A DNA stretch of 64,000 nt from a virus, in IMG/VR virus record IMGVR_UViG_3300025000_000078, positions 10,947-74,946 of that record, one strand, 5' to 3'. The notes under the pieces were generated by a model. The model saw only the letters and a program-made list of their open reading frames with translations. It ran no database searches and had not been told where the DNA came from. Each line of letters starts with the position of its first letter. Position 1 is the stretch's first letter. Both the position numbers and the translations under genes were made by a program. Of the stretch, positions 8,184 through 61,082 are shown piece after piece.

Positions 8184-8705
8184 ACCCATAAATTCACGTA
8201 ATGCATCAATAGCATCAACAGATAATAATGAAAAATTTTCTTGATCGGATTCTCTAGCATTTTTATCTTCCCCAACAACTTGACCTGTCATTGCAGAACG
8301 ACTTGAACTTTTCAATGATAAAGTATTTTTTTTACTTAATAGTTGTTGCATTCTTTTAACATGAACATACCCAACAGGTACTTCATATTTAATAACAATA
8401 GGATTTTCTATACTATTATTAACAAAAGGCACTACTACTTTTTCAAATAAAGGTATGTCTAAGATTTTAGCTGCTTTTTCTATATTTTCGATAGTTAGAT
8501 CTCTTTCATAATCAACCATATCTAGAATAAGATATTGTTCATCATCTTTAAAAAATTCTTTAAAGAAAATATTAAATTGTATATCACTCATTGGTTGAAA
8601 TAATTCTTTATATTTTTTAGTATTAATACCTGTTGGGTCTAATTCATTAAATGTTTCATAGATTACTTTTTCCATTTTTTTTCTCTTATCTTTATTTATA
8701 GTCAT
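8184..8705 (-). CDS. rpoB: RNA polymerase beta C-terminal fragment, exon 1 (probably virion RNAP)
   Basis: PVGYVHVKRMQQ...RSAMTGQ...RESDQE..SL...ALREFMG parallels the beta C-terminal GY.YMLKL...TQQP...RFGEME...LQEML region; a late promoter lies upstream. Confidence 0.8.
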
Positions 8706-8739
8706 CTTCCCCCTTACTATAAAAATACATATACATCTT

Positions 8740-8778
8740 TAAAAATTTGTTCTGTAAATATGAAAAAACAATTATTTA
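8740..8778. promoter_or_regulatory. Divergent pair of AR9-type late promoters (AACA-N6-TA)
   Basis: Minus copy 8740-8751 and plus copy 8767-8778, each pointing at a start codon. Confidence 0.65.
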
Positions 8779-8804
8779 AAATAAAAAAGGGGTGAGATTT
8801 TATA

Positions 8805-9242
8805 ATGAAAAAAAATATTCTTATTATTAAAAGAGAACTTAATATAATAAAATTAGATTACTTAGATGAAAATAAAAATATTATTGATAAAATATCGTAT
8901 CAAATAAAAAATATGGGTTATGAAGCATTTGATGATTTCAAAAACACAATAGTACCTTTTTTTAAAAAATATTTCAAAGATTCTGAAATAATATTTTTAA
9001 ATGAACGACATTTATTAACTTTATTTGTAAAATTATTAAAAATCTGTATTAAAGATGATAAAATACCTCCAATGAAAGCTAATATTGATGAAAGAAAAAG
9101 ACATTATTTTGTAAATATTTATAAAGAAAAAGATATTAATGAGACAATTATTGAATCAAATAGAAATATGACATTTAATTTATTTAGATATTTTGATTAT
9201 CTAGTATTAAAATACTGCTGGTTTGATATAGGGAAAAGATAA
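8805..9242 (+). CDS. Hypothetical protein
   Basis: 145-aa ORF with RBS and late promoter. Confidence 0.65.
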   Translation: MKKNILIIKRELNIIKLDYLDENKNIIDKISYQIKNMGYEAFDDFKNTIVPFFKKYFKDSEIIFLNERHLLTLFVKLLKICIKDDKIPPMKANIDERKRHYFVNIYKEKDINETIIESNRNMTFNLFRYFDYLVLKYCWFDIGKR

Positions 9243-9246
9243 ATGA

Positions 9247-9282
9247 AATTACTAATGTGATATTATATCACATTAGTAATTT
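9247..9282. terminator. Bidirectional terminator hairpin
   Basis: AATTACTAATGTGATA / TATCACATTAGTAATT between convergent genes. Confidence 0.7.
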
Positions 9283-9305
9283 ATATTTTTTCATTAAAAA
9301 TATTA

Positions 9306-9524
9306 CTAACTAACAAGAGGAATATATGCTATTGTTTCATCATACTCCTGTTGAGTTATCCAGCCTTTATTCAAGGCACAATCAATTTGTAATCTACTAT
9401 AAGTAATAGCAGCATATTCTTTTACTGGTTCAACATATTCTACGGGGATTTCTGTAAAAAGTGTATTCCCATAAAGGTAAATATTTCTTGTAAAGGTAGA
9501 TGTCCTAAAAGGTAAAACTGGCAT
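9306..9524 (-). CDS. Small tail-fibre-associated protein (CD1375/XkdX-like)
   Basis: EIP.EY.EPV and GWIT..EY motifs; lies downstream of the fibre gene. Confidence 0.5.
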   Translation of the reverse strand: MPVLPFRTSTFTRNIYLYGNTLFTEIPVEYVEPVKEYAAITYSRLQIDCALNKGWITQQEYDETIAYIPLVS

Positions 9525-9958: not shown

Positions 9959-11731
9959 CTAAGTTGCTAATGCACCTCCAGCAAGGAAACCATACCATCT
10001 AGTACCACCATTTACAGTAACTAGTGTTAAGATATAAGTACTATTAATTGTACTGATATCAGGTATAGTATCAGAAGGCCATTTTACAGAAGCTGGCCAT
10101 GTGACTGCTTGTGCAGTTGCACCCTGATGAATAATTAAAGTAAGACTACACGCTTCTCCGGTTGTAGCAGGGTTTGAAAATACTAAAGTAGTTGCCCCAG
10201 TCAAGGTTAATTCATGTATATTACCTAAAGCAATATCTAAAGTCACTGAACCCGTAGCATTAGAATTTGGTGCAACAACTTCAGAATAGTCTTTAATTTT
10301 AGGCTGTTGAACTTCATTACGAGCATGAGATGTATTACCAGTAAATGCACCACCAGATTTATTCATTTTATTAACATCTTCTGGTATTGCTTTCCACTCA
10401 GTATCCAATTCAGTATCACTTTTTTTAAACAATGCTTGACCAGTAGTTCCTCCAGCTGCTACTCCTGGACCTGCCGGTCCTACATCTCCAGTAAGACCTT
10501 GTATTCCTTGAGGACCTTGAGGTCCGGTAGCTCCAGCAGGTCCAACCTCACCTTGAGCACCTGTCGGTCCTACATCTCCAGTAAGACCTTGTATTCCTTG
10601 AGGACCTACATCTCCAGTATCCCCTTTAACACCTGCCGGTCCTACATCTCCAGTAAGACCTTGTATTCCTTGAGGACCTACATCTCCAGTATCCCCTTTA
10701 ACACCTGCCGGTCCTACATCTCCAGTAAGACCTTGTATTCCTTGAGGACCTACATCTCCAGTAAGACCTTGTATTCCTTGAGGACCTTGAGGTCCGGTAG
10801 CTCCAGCAGGTCCAACCTCACCTTGTACACCGGCAGGCCCAGAAGGTCCTGATACTCCTTGTGGTCCTATTTGCCCTTGTAATCCTGTAAATTGACCATA
10901 ATCTTTCCAAGTAGCACCATCGTAACCTATAATATGCAAACTCTTGTCCCCTGATATACCAGCAGGTGTATTTTGATCAACACGTATATCACCAGCTGGG
11001 TCAACTACATAGATGTATTGATTGTTTACAGTTGATCCACTACTTTGTATAAAAGTTATGGTAGCTTCATCTAATACACCATATGATGTAGGAGCAAAAT
11101 TAGTTCCATTATTACCTGGAATACCCTGGGGACCAGCCTCACCTTGTAAACCAGTAGAACCTTGGGGTCCAGTAGGTCCAATCTCACCTTGTAAACCCTG
11201 AGCACCTTGAGGACCCTGGAGACCAACCTCACCTTGTAAACCAGTAGAACCTTGTGGTCCAGTTGGCCCTTCAACTCCAACCTCACCTTGTACACCCTGA
11301 GCACCTTGAGGACCTCTTAATAAAACGGGTTCAGACCAATCACTTAAATTATCAGAATTTTTAATATATAAGTTTCCAGTAACTGAGTCTAAAAAAGTAA
11401 ATCCTTTTAACTCAGCATCATATGAACCCAAATCAGCAATATCTCCAATTATATCAAAAGTAAGCCCTTCACCATTATCACCTTTAATACCTTGAGGTCC
11501 AGTTTCTCCCTGTGGACCCCTAGTTATAAAAGTTTTATCCTGCCAGATTTCACCAGTCCACATCTGATAACCTAAACCAACAGATATAAGAGTTTCTTCA
11601 ACTAGTTCTGTTGGATTATTAGTAAAATATTCATCTCGAATAATATCATCATTGAAAAAATGATTATTGTTTATATTATTAATGCGTTCTTTTTTAATTT
11701 TATTAATTTTTGCTAAAAGCAAAGGGTCCAC
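9959..11731 (-). CDS. Collagen-like (Gly-X-Y) fibre protein
   Basis: Long GPQG/GPAG repeats and a C-terminal beta-rich domain ending TRWYG. Confidence 0.85.
10466..10870 (-). repeat. Exact nucleotide tandem repeats in the collagen region
   Basis: A 72-nt unit ([24 protein letters not shown]) occurs in tandem; the sub-unit [12 protein letters not shown] occurs five times with identical DNA. Confidence 0.8.
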
Positions 11732-49074: not shown

Positions 49075-50319
49075 CTAGTTTTCTTCATTAAATCCATATA
49101 CATCAAACATTAATGTATTTATATACAAGACATTTACATATATTATTAATCTATATGTTGAATATATATTAACATTTTTTGTTATTAAAATCAATGTATT
49201 AAAATCAATATCATATTCCCCTATATCTTTATTTAACATTTTATTATCCATCATAACAGAAAACTTTAATATTGTTTCTAATGGAACTCCATGGGTTAAA
49301 CAATATTCAATAGATGTTAATATACTTTTATTTAATACTTGTTTTATATCCATTAAATCTGGTTGAATATCACTCTCAACTTTATACAAAGGATATGCAT
49401 ATAGAGTCCATCCAGTAGGAATTTGTTCAGTAAATAAATTACTAATTGTAAACATAGGTATTATTTGATTTTTATTATCAATTATGGACATATCTGTTTG
49501 AGTTATAACTCCTGAACTTTGTGTTACATAGTAATACAATCCTGCACCATTAAATTCTGTTGAAATTGTAAATGTTGTTGCATAAGAATCTGAAACCATT
49601 CCTTTTTTACTTCCATCATCAATAGTTAAACTAGAAAAAGTTGTATCTATATTAACAGGATAAAATCTAAAAAATTCATCATTAGATGAAGCATTTTTTA
49701 CTTTATATGTCACTGGAAATATAGACACTCCGTTCATATAATCTAAAAAAGTTTTAACACTTCCATCTGGAGTATATAGTTCAATTCCTATATCTTTAGC
49801 TAAAAGTTCCATAAGACCTCTAGGAATATAACTTTCTAAACATGTTTCTAAAAAAAATGGTTTATCTTGTCTTATCCTATTTTTTAAATAATTAGCTTGA
49901 TTCAATTGTTGTATCTGTGTATCTGTTATTATTGTTACATCAAAATACATTTTTATACGATTTAATAAATACTTTATATACACACCTTTTTTTCTATCTT
50001 CAATAAATGGTTGTAAATTACTAAAATCAATATCAAAAAAATTATCTGTAATTCTAGTAGTTAAGTATGTTCCGTAAAGAAATGTATCACTATCATCTAA
50101 TTCTATTCTTGGTTTAATTATTAATATAGGTTTATTCTTTTTTATAAATTCTTTATTTGAATTTTGAAATATATTAAATTGTTTATAAGCTATAGATGAA
50201 CTAATATGAATTGTTTTAAAATAATTTGGAGTAAATAAACTTCTAACAAACTCTGTCATAAAAGAAGTAATATTACCAAAAGTGTGCGCTAATGATGTTT
50301 GAGCCATAGCGTATTCCAT
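49075..50319 (-). CDS. Putative virion structural protein
   Basis: 414-aa ORF with a late promoter at 50348-50359. Confidence 0.65.
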   Translation of the reverse strand: MEYAMAQTSLAHTFGNITSFMTEFVRSLFTPNYFKTIHISSSIAYKQFNIFQNSNKEFIKKNKPILIIKPRIELDDSDTFLYGTYLTTRITDNFFDIDFSNLQPFIEDRKKGVYIKYLLNRIKMYFDVTIITDTQIQQLNQANYLKNRIRQDKPFFLETCLESYIPRGLMELLAKDIGIELYTPDGSVKTFLDYMNGVSIFPVTYKVKNASSNDEFFRFYPVNIDTTFSSLTIDDGSKKGMVSDSYATTFTISTEFNGAGLYYYVTQSSGVITQTDMSIIDNKNQIIPMFTISNLFTEQIPTGWTLYAYPLYKVESDIQPDLMDIKQVLNKSILTSIEYCLTHGVPLETILKFSVMMDNKMLNKDIGEYDIDFNTLILITKNVNIYSTYRLIIYVNVLYINTLMFDVYGFNEEN

Positions 50320-50411
50320 AAATTAACCCCATTTCTTTATAATATATTAACTGATTGTTTTTGATAAAAATTAAATGAAAAAAATAAAGGTGAAATAAAT
50401 CTCACCTTTAT

Positions 50412-50789
50412 TTATCTCAAATTTTTAATATTAAAGTTTTTCTTAATATAATCGACTTCTGGTGAAGGTTGGAATTCCCCTTTAGGGATATATATTGCTA
50501 TCATATCTCTACCATTTGGGTCCTTAGAAGAAATAGTAACAACATACTTCATATTAACATCAAAGTTTGTTTTACCATCCTTCTTATAAATAATACTACC
50601 GTTTTTGGGTATGATTAATGTTACTTTGTCCCTAACTAATAGATACTTATTAAATCTCATAGGGTCATTAGTAACTCTAATTAAATACTGATTATCTATA
50701 TCAATATTGTTGATTACATGCTCTAATTCATCCTTACTTAATTCGGGTGCCCTTTTCCCGATTATTCCAATCAGTCGGGCGACCCTCAC
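50412..50789 (-). CDS. Hypothetical protein
   Basis: 125-aa ORF; may start upstream at an in-frame ATA after AAGGAGG. Confidence 0.6.
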   Translation of the reverse strand: MRVARLIGIIGKRAPELSKDELEHVINNIDIDNQYLIRVTNDPMRFNKYLLVRDKVTLIIPKNGSIIYKKDGKTNFDVNMKYVVTISSKDPNGRDMIAIYIPKGEFQPSPEVDYIKKNFNIKNLR

Positions 50790-50900: not shown

Positions 50901-51080
50901 TTAGATATTATTAAATTCATATAGACCAATGATTTGATCTTTTAATAGATTAAAGTCATCATTAAATAAACCATCATTTCTAGAAATAAACATGGATGTC
51001 ACTGGGTTAAATGTCTTATTGAAGGCTTTTATATGTTTTTTAGACTTCAAGGATATGATATTTAGGATATCTCCGTCAAA
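50901..51080 (-). CDS. rpoC: RNA polymerase beta' N-terminal subunit, exon 4 (FDGD...)
   Basis: Starts TTT GAC GGA GAT after the terminal G at 51081 and completes NADFDGD. Confidence 0.9.
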   Translation of the reverse strand, partial: FDGDILNIISLKSKKHIKAFNKTFNPVTSMFISRNDGLFNDDFNLLKDQIIGLYEFNNI

Positions 51081-52160
51081 CCTAGAGTAATGTATTTTCA
51101 TACATTAGAGACTATATTTTCATCCTATTATAATTTATAATAGGAGCTATGCGCTTCCCAGCTAACCCACAAATTAGCCAGTACTCCACTTATTCATATT
51201 TAATATATTCTATTATATATGAATTTGGGATAGTCGTTATACCTTCTTCTATTAATCTATAAAGTTTTTTATAATTTTCATTAATTGCTTTATCATAGAT
51301 TTCTTTACGTTTATTTTCATCTAAGTAAAACACATAATGTTCCTTTATTTTACATGGCATTCGTAAAGCATTTTTTACTTTATCTTTATTCATATCAATA
51401 AAATCACCAAATAATTTAGCACTATCACAGATATAAAATTTATCATCTTTGATTGCTATTATTTTATTAGATTTTTTTCTTTTAGTTTCAGCAGTTTCTT
51501 TTAAACCCTTATGAGATTCAGACATCTCTTTCTAACATCATTATTGAATATTCTTCTTTTATCTAAATTTGAATTGTATCCTTTATTATAGTCAAGTGAA
51601 TCATATTCTTTTATATAATTGATTTCTTTTTCAGATAATTCAATTTCACTAAAACAATATTCAAGAATCTCATATTCAAAGTTTTCAAACCCATATTCTT
51701 CAATAGCTCGGGCTATTGGATAATTGGCCTCTTTCCAACTATTTCTATGCTTACTTATTCTTTTTCTAAAATTAGTGGTTCGTCCAATATAGATTTTATC
51801 ATTAATCTTATTTCTTAAAAGATAGACCACACCATATGGTTTAATTTTAATATCTATTGTTAACAATTTTATAACCTCCTTTCTTTTATGTTGTTTTAGC
51901 AATTAAATTATAGATTATAGATTAATAGAAGCTTGGCACGGTATTACCTGCTATCCATATTCCAGGACCGTAGGTTCTCTTAGAAAGTGTATTCGCTTAT
52001 GGACATGTCACATAGACAAGGCTTGTAATTGTCATACAAGCAATCTTATTTAACTTTTACCGTTAGCAAGTAATAATAAAATATTACTTACACCGCTTGT
52101 TAGGCGTTCACATAGAACTCGCTATATCATTACTGATACGCCGGACCTCGACTTAGATTG
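51081..52160 (-). mobile_element. Group I intron (beta' intron 3) with GIY-YIG remnant, family B
   Basis: P1 CGGAU/GUCCG; CTAACGGT (P), AATACCGTGCCAAG (Q), TAACGACTATC (R), AAATATAGTCT (S). Confidence 0.88.
51190..51866 (-). pseudogene. Frameshifted GIY-YIG/NUMOD3 homing endonuclease
   Basis: GVVY...IYIG...R domain (51501-51902) and the NUMOD3-like MSESHKG part (51190-51525) join with one added nucleotide near 51527. Confidence 0.8.
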
Positions 52161-52274
52161 ATCCGCATTTAAAACCTTCAATATTTGTATGGGTAAACTC
52201 ATTGTATATTCATCAGTAATACTATTTTTAATATCAACTATCTTCATTAAAAGCATACTTCCGAAATTAATTGT
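52161..52274 (-). CDS. rpoC: RNA polymerase beta' N-terminal subunit, exon 3
   Basis: TINFGSMLLM...LKVLNAD, 38 codons. Confidence 0.88.
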
Positions 52275-53311
52275 CTAAAGGTTCACATAGGTCGTTACTC
52301 TATGCAGTTCTCTTATGAACTTCCCTAACTCTCATTAGGATACCAGACTATATTATCATCTTTATATAAGTTATAAAGAGACACCTATTTCGATTTAAGG
52401 GAATTTCACCCACTCACTTGAGCCCTACTCCTGTTGTACATTTCAGTACTTAAAGGATAGTCGTTGAACTTTTCTTATACTGTTCAGTATTTATATTTGT
52501 TTGTAATATGTGACCATCTTTCCTTTCTTTTAATTTTACCAATAAAATTTTTTAACAGAATATCTGATTTTTTATCATATTCTGTAAAATTTAATCTAAT
52601 TAATTTAAGTATTTTATCAACAGATTCATTACACACTAATAATTTACAAATAAATTTAACAAGCTTTTCAGTATAAATTGAAGCAAAATGTGCTTCACCC
52701 TTATATTGCCAATGTAACCCCATTTTAACTGCATGTCTGATATTATCACCATGAGTTGACCATTCTAGATTTTTATAATAATTATTTCTTTTAATTCCAT
52801 TTTTATGATTCACTTCTATTTTGTTTAAATCATCATTTTTTACAAATTCATAACAAACCAGTCTATGAATACTAAATTGTCTTTCTTTAATAATTTCTTC
52901 CCCTGTTTGTAATGCAAGTCTATAGTATCCAGCTGAACCTAATTGTTGTGATAAAATATGGTCCCAATTTTTATTTTTTATTCTACCATGATCTGATATT
53001 TGATAAAGATTATTTTTAACACCTGGATAGGTAACATCTTTCCATACTTCAGTTCCTATTTCTATAAAAACTTTCATTTGTATCACCTCCTCCTAAAGAA
53101 TTAATTTAAAGATGTCATGTTTATTGAACAGTATTAAGTTTAGCTGCGGATCACTCAATCCTAAAACCTTATTACTATACCTTGGTTGATTAGTCCAAGC
53201 CATTAATATATCACTATATTAATTTAGTAGTTTTAGGCTCTAAGAGCTTCCCCGACAATTAAAGTGTTGTTTTCTTCACTATAAATCACTCTATAGTGCC
53301 CCACAAAGTTT
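52275..53311 (-). mobile_element. Group I intron (beta' intron 2) with HNH ORF, family A
   Basis: P1 CCCU/GGGG; splits NRNP|T, the equivalent of beta' NRAPT. Confidence 0.9.
52484..53086 (-). CDS. Intron-encoded HNH homing endonuclease
   Basis: EVWK...SDHGRI, HRLV, VNHKNG.K.NN...NLEW.T...N..HA. Confidence 0.9.
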   Translation of the reverse strand: MIQMKVFIEIGTEVWKDVTYPGVKNNLYQISDHGRIKNKNWDHILSQQLGSAGYYRLALQTGEEIIKERQFSIHRLVCYEFVKNDDLNKIEVNHKNGIKRNNYYKNLEWSTHGDNIRHAVKMGLHWQYKGEAHFASIYTEKLVKFICKLLVCNESVDKILKLIRLNFTEYDKKSDILLKNFIGKIKRKERWSHITNKYKY

Positions 53312-53543
53312 AGGGTTTCTATTGATAAGAACTTTTGGTTGCCATTTCTTTAATAAATATTTCATTATTTCATATAGTTTATTATTATAAACTATACTTC
53401 CTTTATACCAATATTCATATGCTTCATTCTCAGAAATATCATTTATTTTAGAAACATGAGTTACTATCTCATATTTATATAATTCTAAGAATGCTAAATA
53501 ACCTAATTTAATTTCATTTGCTTTTAATACAGGGTCGGGTATT
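53312..53543 (-). CDS. rpoC: RNA polymerase beta' N-terminal subunit, exon 2
   Basis: IPDPVLKANEIKLGY...VLINRNP, open for 77 codons. Confidence 0.88.
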
Positions 53544-54949
53544 CGATATATTCACATTAGTCGTCAGCTAATGCAGTTCTCTTATGAACTTCCTTATCTT
53601 TCGATAAGATACTAGACTATATCTTCATCCATTATATAATCAGTATAATGGAGCTCTCCATTTCGTAAAGAATTCTTTAAGAATTCACCCTACCATTTAT
53701 TGACTTGTAGGTCTACTTCTACTCACATATTTAAAGTATGTTTTCGAATAGTCGTTGAACTTTATTTTTCACCAGTTATTTTTTAATAATCATATTAAGA
53801 AGTAATGATTGTCCGAACATTTCTTCTCTTTAAATCATAAATTAAATTTTGATAATGTATTTTTTCTTTAATAGGTATATTAATTATTTTTATTATATCA
53901 GTGGTTTTATAACCTTTCTCCAAGTATTGACATATTAAATGAATCAAATCATCACTATATATTTTTTTATCTAATCTTTCAGTAGAAAAATTATATTTTT
54001 TTGATATATTTCTACGAGTTTTAAAGTGACGAATATCACCAATTAATTTAGCGTAACTTCCTTTTTCTTTTTCAACTACACCTAATTCTTTTATTATATC
54101 TCTGGGATATAAACCTTTTTCTAAATATTGACATATAGTATGAATTAGTTCATCAGAAAATTCCCGTTTAAATTTTTTATTAGAAAAATTATATTCACTG
54201 GTTATATCAGCCCAATCACATTTAGCTTTTAATCTATGGATTAAATCACCAAAAGATTTCTTATCTTTATTTTCAATATTCATTAGTTTTATTATTTTTT
54301 TAGGTGATAAATCCTTTTCAATATATTCACACACTTGTCTTATTACCGGTTCAGTATATTTAAAATTAACACAAAATCCTCTTTTTTTCTTTATATTCCC
54401 GTGTTTAAAACCGTGAAGAATATTTTCACTTTGAGTAGTCCATTCTAAATTCCATTTATGACATATATATCTCTGATTATTTAAATGATTAACCACACAT
54501 TTTTTATCACTATATCCCTCAACAAAATGCCACGCTACAATTCTGTGAACAGTATATGTTTTTTTCTTAACTAGATTCTTTACTTTTAATCTAATACGTA
54601 AATACCCATCTGGACATAGTGCTTTAGTATAGATCTTTCCTGTTTTACCATGGTTACTTACAGAATATAGATTTGATTCAATATCCCTATAATTTATAGT
54701 TTCCCATTTTTCTTCTTCTAAAATAAATGTTATATACAATGTTAATTACCACCTCCTTATTATAAATTTTTGAACAATTTTCTATTTCTCACTGGTAAAA
54801 AATCTTAGCTGCGGATTACTCAATCCTAAAACCTTATTACTATACCTTAGATGATTAATCTAAGCCATTAATATATCACTATATTAATTTAGTAGTTTTA
54901 GGCTCTAAGAGCTTCCCCGACAATTAAAAGAGTTACGTTGCGTATTTCC
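53544..54949 (-). mobile_element. Group I intron (beta' intron 1) with HNH ORF, family A
   Basis: P1 CGUUGU/GCAACG; splits SARCVV|IPDP; ends ATATATCG. Confidence 0.9.
53795..54739 (-). CDS. Intron-encoded HNH endonuclease with three C-terminal HTH-like repeats
   Basis: HRIVA, VNHLN...NLEWTT.SEN..H; I..(V/I)C.Y(I/L)EK repeated three times. Confidence 0.88.
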   Translation of the reverse strand: MYITFILEEEKWETINYRDIESNLYSVSNHGKTGKIYTKALCPDGYLRIRLKVKNLVKKKTYTVHRIVAWHFVEGYSDKKCVVNHLNNQRYICHKWNLEWTTQSENILHGFKHGNIKKKRGFCVNFKYTEPVIRQVCEYIEKDLSPKKIIKLMNIENKDKKSFGDLIHRLKAKCDWADITSEYNFSNKKFKREFSDELIHTICQYLEKGLYPRDIIKELGVVEKEKGSYAKLIGDIRHFKTRRNISKKYNFSTERLDKKIYSDDLIHLICQYLEKGYKTTDIIKIINIPIKEKIHYQNLIYDLKRRNVRTIITS

Positions 54950-55839
54950 ACAACGCAGCGGGCTGAAAAGTTGATCTTACCCCCAAGAATTTCCCATTTT
55001 ATATGACCTTTTCTTTGGTCTATTTGTTTAAATATTAAGTAGCATAGCTCAATTAATTTCTTTTGAATTATAGTAAGAATTTTATTTTCATCAATATCAC
55101 CCCAGTCTTTCTTCTTTCTAGTTTCTATTAATTCTCTATCTTTTAATAATCTACTTAAAGAAACTATTGGATTATATTTTTTATCCATAGAGTTATAAAA
55201 GAAAGATTCACCTTTAAATTGAGAGGGTCTCAATACAGATGAATAAACTGGAATAGATGAAGCGAATACTTTATCTTTTTCTTTATATAATTCATCTATC
55301 ATTTCAATCTTATTCTTTTTCTTAGCTCTATAATAATCCATTATTTCATCAAATCTACTTTTAAACTCCATAATACCAATACCTTTAAATGGAGTTTTAC
55401 CATGTTTATCAATTATATGACCATCTTTAGTATATTCTTTGTCATATTCAATAATTTCTAAAAATCCCTTTTCACCAATTATTGATTTCAACATTCTATA
55501 GAATATAGGATGGATTATACTATAAACACCTAATTTAATCCAACCTGTAATTTTTAAATCAACATCTTTAAATTTAACTATTGTACCACAAATATCACAC
55601 TCTTCTTCATCATATAATCTTCCTTTTAATTCTCCGCATTCACATGTATATCTTTCTGCAAATGCATCATCATCTTCAAAATCTGTAGCAAATAGAGGAG
55701 ATTGAATACCATACTTAGATTTCTTCTGCTTTCCTTTAAAAGCAGGTTCTTTTATTTCAAAACCTTTACCTATAATAAAATCTTTTTCACACTCCTCATC
55801 CCAATTTAGTTTTACTAATCTAACCTCATCATGTTTCAA
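54950..55839 (-). CDS. rpoC: RNA polymerase beta' N-terminal subunit, exon 1 (probably non-virion RNAP)
   Basis: Zn finger CECG...CDIC, GWI.L, IPV....LRP, KG.I...ILGGKINFSAR; early motif at 55913-55920. Spliced product is about 471 aa. Confidence 0.9.
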
Positions 55840-55979
55840 TAATTAAACCTCCTTTAGAATAAATATTTTACCTTATTAAAAAGTTCTTAGAGTTTTAAAA
55901 CTCTACTAAAATATAATATATGTATAAAAAAAATATTGTTTATCAGAAAATAATAATCTGATAAACAATAATAAATAAA

Positions 55980-60545: not shown

Positions 60546-61082
60546 CACTGTACCGCCTCTTTCGAGGTATTTCAAACGGGTTAGACTATATCATATACCT
60601 ATTTTTTTATATAGGTACCCTGGTACTTCGGATCGGGATTTTCACCCTAATTACCCCTACTCTACTCGCTTCGTGTATCATAATCATATAATACCTTATT
60701 TTCAACACCAAAAAGATGTCTTAGCTTTCGATAGTCGTTAGCGTTTCCCTAATATTTTTTATATTTAAATTCCCACCCTTTATGTTTTTTAACCCAGATA
60801 TTTTTATTAATAGCATAATTATTTTTATAAAGGGTTAGTGGGATTTTTTAAAATAGTAGGGCTTACGACGGTATTACCTGCTATCCATATTCCAGGACCG
60901 TAGGTTCTCTTAGAAAGTGTATTCGCTTATGGACATGTCACATAGACAAGGCTTGTAATTGTCATACAAGCAATCTTATTTAACTTCTACCGTTAGCAAG
61001 AGTTTTTAAACTCTCACACCCATCTATTGATGGTTCACCAGGTTATTCAATGTACATTACTGTACAAGGGAACAAATTAATT
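60546..61082 (-). mobile_element. Group I intron in nrdD, family B, with endonuclease remnant
   Basis: P1 GAAU/GUUC; P/Q/R/S elements; splicing restores QSCQN|DMHGGQ. Confidence 0.9.

Follow-up and report, generated by a model that had tools for sequence, protein, structure and literature searches.

The interrupted gene

The window examined here is a 64,000-nucleotide stretch of DNA (positions 10,947 to 74,946 of the IMG/VR virus record IMGVR_UViG_3300025000_000078) from an uncultured, AT-rich jumbo phage of the AR9/phiR1-37 kind. Four exons on its minus strand (Table 1) join into 1416 nt encoding 471 amino acids and a stop codon, with no internal stops. Judging from the sequence, the locus very probably encodes the beta'-N subunit of a non-virion multisubunit RNA polymerase (nvRNAP), with its coding sequence divided by three mobile group I introns. 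A first-pass annotation had proposed the same four exons, a product of about 471 aa and introns at SARCVV|IP, NRNP|T and NAD|FDGD; string searches and the joined frame show its exon coordinates to be exact to the base and all three intron positions to be correct. The junction contexts read SARCVV|IPDP (phase 2), NRNP|TINF and NAD|FDGD. Introns make up 3523 of the 4939 nt of the locus (71%), in agreement with the earlier estimate of about 3.5 kb in 4.9 kb. The TTG start at 55839 is conserved in two relatives about 91% identical in DNA (designated L003 and L004), where the alignment starts at residue 1, and in L003 exon 3 runs on from exons 1 and 2 uninterrupted.

Table 1. Features of the beta'-N locus as read from the sequence, in window coordinates; tblastn rows give the matches of phiR1-37 g274
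Feature	Position	Strand	Description
Shine-Dalgarno AAAGGAGG	55848..55855	-	Precedes the TTG start at 55839 by 8 nt
Exon 1	54950..55839	-	890 nt; residues 1-296 plus 2 nt; ends ...SARCV(V)
Intron 1	53544..54949	-	1406 nt; group I; ends in G
Intron 1 ORF	53795..54739	-	314-aa I-HmuI-like HNH endonuclease; own Shine-Dalgarno; in P6 loop
Exon 2	53312..53543	-	232 nt; (V)IPDP...VLINRNP
Intron 2	52275..53311	-	1037 nt; group I
Intron 2 ORF	52484..53086	-	NUMOD4 + HNH_3 endonuclease; 200 aa from GTG; ATG at 53077
Exon 3	52161..52274	-	114 nt; 38 aa; TINFGS...KVLNAD
Intron 3	51081..52160	-	1080 nt; inside NAD|FDGD; second ribozyme lineage
Intron 3 ORF, GIY-YIG catalytic-domain fragment	51501..51866	-	Pfam GIY-YIG PF01541, E=6.4e-13, above cut-off
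Intron 3 ORF, C-terminal DNA-binding fragment	51190..51525	-	Other frame; 25-nt overlap with GIY-YIG fragment
Exon 4	50901..51080	-	180 nt with stop; FDGDILNIIS...EFNNI, stop
tblastn piece 1	55824-54949	-	Query 3-280
tblastn piece 2	53524-53306	-	Query 288-360
tblastn piece 3	52274-52161	-	Query 359-395
tblastn piece 4	51080-50922	-	Query 396-446

Over its whole length the spliced product can be aligned with the intact phiR1-37 g274, which as a tblastn query finds four collinear pieces in the window. The first-pass annotation had suggested comparison with the AR9 non-virion enzyme as a check, and the product also aligns with AR9 gp270 (nvRNAP beta'-N), at 31% identity over residues 99-470, spanning all three junctions. 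This full-length homology to both proteins, together with the catalytic NADFDGD motif, is what identifies the product as nvRNAP beta'-N. The beta'-N subunit holds a zinc-binding N-terminus as well as the catalytic NADFDGD loop; exon 1 encodes four cysteines invariant among homologs (C66, C68, C81 and C84), and its best solved relative is the beta' chain of AR9 nvRNAP (PDB 7S00/7S01, E=8e-15). In an intact homolog (L010), Pfam PF00623 matches above its cut-off, and the match covers all three intron sites. Synonymous-only codon changes outnumber amino-acid changes by 89 vs 22 and 89 vs 33, and by this sequence measure all exons are under purifying selection in the spliced frame.

Three group I introns of two ribozyme lineages

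In all three introns the 5' splice site comes after a U that forms a U.G wobble in P1, and the last intron nucleotide is G. The P1 helix of intron 1 (hairpin 54957-54934) pairs CGUUGU| with GCAACG, that of intron 2 pairs CCCU| with GGGG, and that of intron 3 pairs CGGAU| with GUCCG. Introns 1 and 2 represent one ribozyme lineage, sharing a 5' block of 124 nt that is 96% identical, and they align throughout with other introns of the window that score 86.6, 60.8 and 46.7 bits against Rfam RF00028, and with the AR9 intron. The elements of the group I core (P3-P4, P4'/P6, J6/7-P7, P8, P7' and P9) are homologous to those of confirmed introns, apart from P3 of intron 3, for which no confident assignment was reached. 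The alignment of introns 1 and 2 contains compensatory changes in P3 (CUCUUU/GGAGAG vs ACACUU/AGGUGU). In intron 3, the P4-P6 consensus, P7 (GACUAU/AUAGUC), P8 and P9 are present. Two candidate CUAUGUG partners for its P3 were rejected, one being broken in L003 and the other distant from P4. A two-sequence alifold gave six compensatory pairs and none broken, which counts as weak support. Precise removal of the introns restores the conserved reading frame and reproduces the intron-less alleles of relatives.

None of the three introns gives a full-length match above the RF00028 gathering score of 50 bits. The 3' halves of introns 1 and 2 match with 28.7 bits (G000:64538-64689, window 53592-53743) and 26.8 bits (E=3.2e-5), while intron 3 yields a partial match of 21.1 bits (E=1.4e-3); the 5' halves alone have no Rfam match. 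Rfam scans of the whole window and of the whole locus find no group I match within the locus, which we attribute to the 0.6-0.95 kb ORFs in P6 splitting the model rather than to absence of a ribozyme. An ORF-less sister of intron 3 reaches just 20.6 bits, and Rfam captures this ribozyme lineage poorly. The second lineage also has a copy at about 60546-61082 of the window. Introns at the same sites in two other homologs (L005 and L020) score 58-100 bits.

Endonuclease genes within the introns

The first-pass annotation had assigned a different endonuclease to each intron. Each does contain a nuclease gene, but those of introns 1 and 2 encode paralogous HNH proteins (31% identical) of one family, and are thus not fully different, and the gene in intron 3 is frameshifted. 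I-HmuI-like enzymes are characterized by an HNH catalytic motif (His general base, metal-binding Asn) and an N-terminal NUMOD4-type region, and both HNH proteins can be classed with them, their NH...N residues aligning with I-HmuI (PDB 1U3E). The intron 1 protein matches 1U3E at E=2.3e-10 and phrog_59 at E=1.5e-24, scores 18 bits against Pfam HNH_3, which is under the cut-off, and ends in three repeats of about 62 aa. The intron 2 protein matches Pfam NUMOD4 (E=1.3e-7) and HNH_3 (E=4.8e-6), both above cut-off, and 1U3E at E=3.5e-9. Both enzymes probably nick DNA.

In intron 3, two fragments represent the GIY-YIG gene; they are 45% identical to residues 3-102 and 46% identical to residues 117-228 of an intact 228-aa protein in L003. 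As these overlapping frames match separate parts of one protein, we conclude that the gene is frameshifted in the assembly: a GIY-YIG domain is present, but no single polypeptide joins it to the DNA-binding part. The enzyme is probably inactive as assembled, and the frameshift could be an assembly error. At its 3' end, the C-terminal fragment runs across the ribozyme elements P6' and P7.

Empty sites and polymorphism among relatives

At every junction, the joined exons match the uninterrupted alleles of L003 and L004 exactly or almost exactly. The intron 1 site is empty in both relatives. The intron 2 site is empty in L003 and holds a 389-nt ORF-less ortholog in L004, while the intron 3 site is empty in L004 and holds an ortholog with an intact GIY-YIG gene in L003. 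The window allele is thus the union of introns found singly in L003 and L004, plus one that is unique. Among 31 homologs surveyed, 19 bear introns (one to five each), clustered at these motifs, and 12 are intron-free; CVV|IP is the only site unique to this phage. Introns are polymorphic in presence and absence among relatives, and ORF-less, intact and broken copies all occur in the family.

An exact search for the intron 1 junction in viral contigs gave no match, and no close relatives of the intron 1 HNH protein were found in viral contigs. Megablast against a phage collection, which may omit the window's own or a near-identical record, also gave no match. In mismatch profiles around the shared introns, no clear signal of co-conversion tracts was seen.

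Within the catalytic loop, four intron positions lie within about 15 nt (N|ADFDGD, AD|FDGD, ADFD|GD and DFDG|D). In different lineages they hold ribozymes unrelated to one another and nucleases of the HNH or GIY-YIG type. A single homolog (L020) has two introns in this motif, with a 9-nt FDG micro-exon between them.

Comparison with known systems

An intron in the catalytic motif of an RNA polymerase is not new, as introns lie at DYDG|D in AR9 and at N|ADFDGD in phiKZ. In AR9, as read from its GenBank record, the orthologous gp270 is interrupted within the motif by a group I intron that bears a NUMOD4/HNH endonuclease, gp271, and the ribozyme core can be aligned with those of introns 1 and 2. 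There, however, a single intron lies 9 nt downstream of the intron 3 site and carries an HNH gene, whereas our locus has three introns and a GIY-YIG gene in the one within the motif. In phiKZ the nvRNAP beta'-N gene is likewise split beside the catalytic motif by an HNH-bearing insert (gp55/gp56 (HNH)/gp56.1), and the fused product is a chain in structure 7OGP. The phiKZ gene is, however, no more than a distant relative (E=0.003 to exon 1) and has one insert, which from the DNA lies 6 nt upstream of the site used here.

Both HNH ORFs also recall the I-HmuI and I-HmuII introns of Bacillus phages SPO1 and SP82, reportedly described by Goodrich-Blair and Shub in 1994 and by Landthaler and colleagues in 2004. 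In those phages similar ribozymes carry highly divergent ORFs, a pattern that recurs here, but the host gene is a DNA polymerase, and the HNH proteins of our locus add one to three C-terminal modules of about 62 aa.

A further relative is PhiPA3 gp210, an I-HmuI-like HNH nickase from a group I intron that interrupts an RNAP gene of a jumbo phage (Birkholz et al. 2024, PMC11620839). That intron splits gp211/209 beside conserved catalytic aspartates and has served as a model for co-infection competition (PMC11620839). PhiPA3 differs in being a nucleus-forming phage with one intron, located in a beta-like subunit of the virion enzyme; activity and a fitness effect have been measured there. Core genes interrupted by many group I introns are also described for the Jug phages (PMC12880540) and the MarsHill-like Staphylococcus phages (10.1101/2020.12.14.422802), with HNH, GIY-YIG and PD-(D/E)xK endonucleases and with exon numbers that differ between close relatives. 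In the parts of those accounts available to us, terL, nrdD and DNA polymerase are the genes highlighted for the Jug phages (PMC12880540), and clustering of intron sites in beta'-N is not described for either group (PMC12880540; 10.1101/2020.12.14.422802).

Homing, interference or regulation

The introns of this locus are very probably ordinary homing introns, of a kind already known. Each ribozyme would excise itself after transcription by way of the P1 wobble pair and the 3' terminal G, leaving a 1416-nt mRNA for the 471-aa protein, and each endonuclease gene in a P6 loop would be translated separately from its own Shine-Dalgarno sequence. In a mixed infection, the enzymes are expected to cut a close relative's intron-less allele at the corresponding exon junction; the intron would spread when the cut is mended from the copy that contains it. 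Introns are known to favor active-site codons (PMC12908238), and the review literature explains their presence in the most conserved codons by DNA targets that are common to many relatives and by the lethality of imprecise loss.

Two other views of the locus would have the inserts either never removed or kept for regulation. If they stayed in the message, the locus would be a pseudogene or a source of separate peptides, and the lack of full-length Rfam scores above threshold could be taken in that sense. Exons 2-4, however, lack both a start codon and a ribosome-binding site at the 5' end, and interruption of NAD|FDGD would abolish catalysis. In the spliced frame every exon is under purifying selection, the junctions equal the empty alleles exactly, ribozyme cores are present, and the equivalent spliced product of phiKZ (PHIKZ055/PHIKZ056.1) is chain A of 7OGP; we find this reading hardly credible. 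Regulatory introns, whose splicing efficiency would gate the catalytic subunit and so time the activity of the non-virion polymerase, are very improbable in our estimation. Production of the subunit does require three splicing events, and the intron-borne gene of AR9 has its own early promoter (PMC5312081). The introns are nevertheless dispensable, since 12 of the 31 homologs have none and only one of the three is present in each of the closest relatives. Nor is there a promoter signal inside the introns: the AR9-type early promoter motif TATATTAT is neither enriched (47 found vs 47.8 expected) nor positioned upstream of the intron ORFs, and a sigma-70 scan is at background (44 vs 42).

The first-pass annotation had suggested that the locus could be a multi-nuclease battery aimed at the RNAP genes of relatives. 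On this reading, stacked introns are kept because their endonucleases would damage the RNAP gene of a co-infecting rival at as many as three sites and so reduce its yield. Its precedent, an intron endonuclease that interferes with competing phages, is real, as PhiPA3 gp210 acts in a jumbo-phage RNAP gene, nicking the intron-less allele, with 3.7-fold fewer rival progeny (PMC11620839). The empty sites of L003 and L004 match the 42-nt targets at 33-40 positions, and the allele combines the introns that these two hold singly with a unique one. Distant homologs, however, share only 16-31 of the 42 nt, and the GIY-YIG gene is frameshifted. At about 91% identity a cut would probably be repaired by homing and the rival not killed, whereas the interference in PhiPA3 was ascribed to limited recombination at about 60% identity (PMC11620839). 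The mixture of ORF-less, intact and broken copies, moreover, fits a selfish cycle of gain, decay and loss with no benefit to the phage. On this analysis we consider a battery unlikely. It is similarly doubtful that the catalytic-loop codons of beta'-N are a contested landing pad at which the three-intron allele, immune to several nuclease lineages, would act as a multi-site marker-exclusion or interference cassette favoring its carrier.

Across the family surveyed, mobile introns have entered the beta'-N gene repeatedly, at the three motifs where it is most conserved. The gene model, one 471-aa subunit with three nested endonuclease genes, matters for the annotation of uncultured jumbo phages because ORF callers see fragments only. 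As the relatives between them show occupied, empty, ORF-less and decayed states, the gene is a natural system for the life cycle of homing endonucleases and, given a host, the beta'-N locus could be used to test whether stacked introns help a phage to compete.

Structure and identity of the gene

The gene was mapped independently of the first-pass annotation, using the uninterrupted 452-aa phiR1-37 protein g274 as a tblastn query, which matched four collinear, contiguous minus-strand pieces of the window (table). String searches showed the junction coordinates of the first-pass annotation to be exact, and its gene model holds up as well: the joined exons (1416 nt) give a frame of 471 aa with one stop, at the end, and the junctions read from them lie in SARCVV/IPDP (phase 2), NRNP/TINFGS and NAD/FDGD (slashes mark insertion points). 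Introns account for 3523 of the 4939 nt of the locus. In two close relatives, L003 and L004 (protein 93-95% identical to the window gene, DNA about 91%), junctions 1 and 2 (L003) and junctions 1 and 3 (L004) are uninterrupted, and these sequences equal the joined exons except for one synonymous change at junction 3 of L004. In every exon, codons that differ only synonymously are more numerous than those with a changed amino acid (89 to 22 for L003, 89 to 33 for L004), thus the spliced frame is under purifying selection.

The earlier assignment to RNAP beta' agrees with the alignment of the spliced protein to AR9 gp270 (31% identity, residues 99-470), which is annotated in AR9's record as the N-terminal beta' subunit of the non-virion RNAP (nvRNAP). 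Among solved structures, exon 1 is closest to the AR9 nvRNAP beta' chain (7S00/7S01, E=8e-15), with phiKZ gp55 as a weak further match. Four invariant cysteines mark an N-terminal zinc site, and PF00623 (Rpb1 domain 2) is above cut-off on the intact homolog L010 at residues 282-419, a span that includes all three intron sites. At window 50382-50413 and 49075-50789, a 125-aa ORF for which no family match was found is followed by a terminator-like element, a strong hairpin of 14 bp with a T run behind it; the next ORF (414 aa) matches only phrog_21946, of unknown function.

The IMG/VR record is linear, 74.9 kb and about 31% complete by CheckV, and the locus has a GC content of 20-35%. By protein comparison, no named phage comes closer than Yersinia phage phiR1-37 and the Bacillus AR9/PBS1 group (about 28-31% identity), which makes this partial record a piece of an uncultured jumbo phage of the AR9 type.

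Mapped pieces of the gene, occupied sites at the catalytic motif, and the motif introns of relative L020
Feature	Location	Strand	Detail
g274 residues 3-280	55824-54949	-	tblastn E=8e-31
g274 residues 288-360	53524-53306	-	tblastn
g274 residues 359-395	52274-52161	-	tblastn
g274 residues 396-446	51080-50922	-	tblastn
AD/FDGD occupied			L013 (=L003), L018, L020, L025 (=L005), L030, L035, L031, L037, L041; earlier-numbered duplicates L007, L008, L012
ADFD/GD occupied			L022, L032, L034
DFDG/D occupied			AR9, L020, L038, probably L023
L020 first motif intron	NAD/ site		1030 nt; intact 227-aa GIY-YIG gene
L020 micro-exon	L020 9216-9224		TTCGACGGC (F-D-G), 9 nt
L020 second motif intron	DFDG/D		272 nt, ORF-less group I; RF00028 58.8 bits

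Insertion sites across the family

Insertion into the catalytic motif is frequent in this family. Among 31 homologs (29 IMG/VR loci, AR9 and phiR1-37), 12 have no intron and 19 have one to five. AD/FDGD is occupied in the window and in ten surveyed loci, and the phiKZ insert, at N/ADFDGD, represents a fourth site at the motif, where the DNA (L042:9150-10560) runs from ...APN through an HNH gene to ...cg/GCT GAT TTT GAC GGC GAT. The phiKZ record annotates the two exons, gp55 and gp56.1, as separate CDSs around gp56. The nuclease at AD/FDGD is GIY-YIG in the window, L003 and L020, HNH in L005 and L008, and absent from L007 and L012. The NRNP region has three insertion positions and the GKxG...NFSxRxV region four, with CVV/IP used only in the window within this survey. 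The closest known cases are AR9 gp270/gp271 and phiKZ gp55/56/56.1, and reports on Jug phages (PMC12880540) and MarsHill-like phages (10.1101/2020.12.14.422802) already describe huge phages dense in introns.

The extreme case is L020, with five introns in its beta'-N gene, so the three introns here are no record. Its catalytic motif (IMGVR_UViG_3300001041_000014, 8186-9496) holds two introns separated by a micro-exon; the second has its 5' splice site after C, not U, and a search for its P1 gave no convincing helix. The L020 record, a 100-kb phage fragment, has 22 RF00028 matches, 20 of them above cut-off and five in the beta'-N gene.

Two ribozyme lineages

In all three introns the 5' splice site follows a U paired with G in P1, and the last nucleotide is G. 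Introns 1 and 2 belong to a lineage that occurs at least eight times in the window; their 124-nt 5' blocks (54805-54928 and 53140-53263) are 96% identical, and the block is 92% identical to 961-1092, in an intron of another window gene. They align throughout with window introns scoring 86.6, 60.8 and 46.7 bits on RF00028, and copies of the lineage differ by compensatory changes in P3. With their ORFs placed in P6, none of introns 1-3 can be scored full length by Rfam; the 3' halves score 28.7, 26.8 and 21.1 bits, respectively, and same-site introns of relatives, ORF-less or short, reach 58-100 bits.

Intron 3 represents a second lineage, with a P4-P6 consensus, P7 (GACUAU/AUAGUC), P8 and P9, and a hairpin whose pairing survives several double changes in L003; no P3 helix could be assigned in it. 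A short intron about 9 kb away is its sole sister in the window: 133 nt from the 5' region of intron 3 (51938-52070) match 60868-61000 at 99% identity, while outside this stretch the two are different. Intron copies may thus have recombined recently or undergone gene conversion. Since even this ORF-less copy (60546-61082) scores only 20.6 bits on RF00028, standard Rfam scans would miss the second lineage.

Intron endonucleases

The HNH genes of introns 1 and 2 are paralogs, only 31% identical against 96% for the 5' ribozyme blocks of their introns; these introns resemble patchworks of interchangeable modules. Each gene product has the nicking enzyme I-HmuI (1U3E) as a match, with E about 1e-9 to 1e-10, and the intron 2 gene has NUMOD4 and HNH_3 above Pfam cut-offs. 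The C-terminus of the intron 1 protein is made up of three modules in tandem, each of about 62 aa (53795-54360) and with a core like ELIHxICQYLEKG...DIIK, which may form a variable-copy DNA-binding array. One such module is present in the intron 2 HNH and at least two in the HNH of L009.

Intron 3 has a GIY-YIG domain (Pfam, E=6e-13), its gene spread over two overlapping frames. The orthologous L003 intron has an intact 228-aa ORF, to which these frames align collinearly at residues 3-102 and 117-228. Unless the assembly is in error, a frameshift has broken a single gene here. The orthologous introns (L003:9237-10315 and window 51081-52160) are 91% identical over the 5' 246 nt; DNA similarity is undetectable in the GIY-YIG catalytic regions (protein 45%), and the 3' part of the ORF is 68% identical. 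This gene either evolves at a pace well beyond that of ribozyme and host gene or was partly replaced.

Probable homing introns and the weapon hypothesis

The first-pass annotation had proposed that these nucleases could be a battery aimed at relatives' RNAP genes, an idea for which PhiPA3 gp210 (PMC11620839) is the precedent. Candidate targets in close relatives are indeed 33-40 of 42 nt identical, but between genomes so similar a cut would be expected to lead to repair by homing rather than to a rival's death, while only 16-31 of 42 nt match in distant relatives, and one of the three nucleases, the intron 3 GIY-YIG, appears broken. We consider such a role unlikely.

The best-supported reading of the sequences is that these are group I introns of the ordinary mobile kind, which carry homing endonucleases. 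Phages that are 91% identical differ in which of the introns they have, a sign of recent gain or loss, and ORF-less, intact and frameshifted nuclease states all fit the known cycle of invasion, decay and loss. According to a review (PMC12908238), active-site codons are favoured for insertion, imprecise deletion being lethal. What is new here is the CVV/IP site, unique to the window, and a family-level map of insertion sites for the beta'-N gene, along with the micro-exon in L020.
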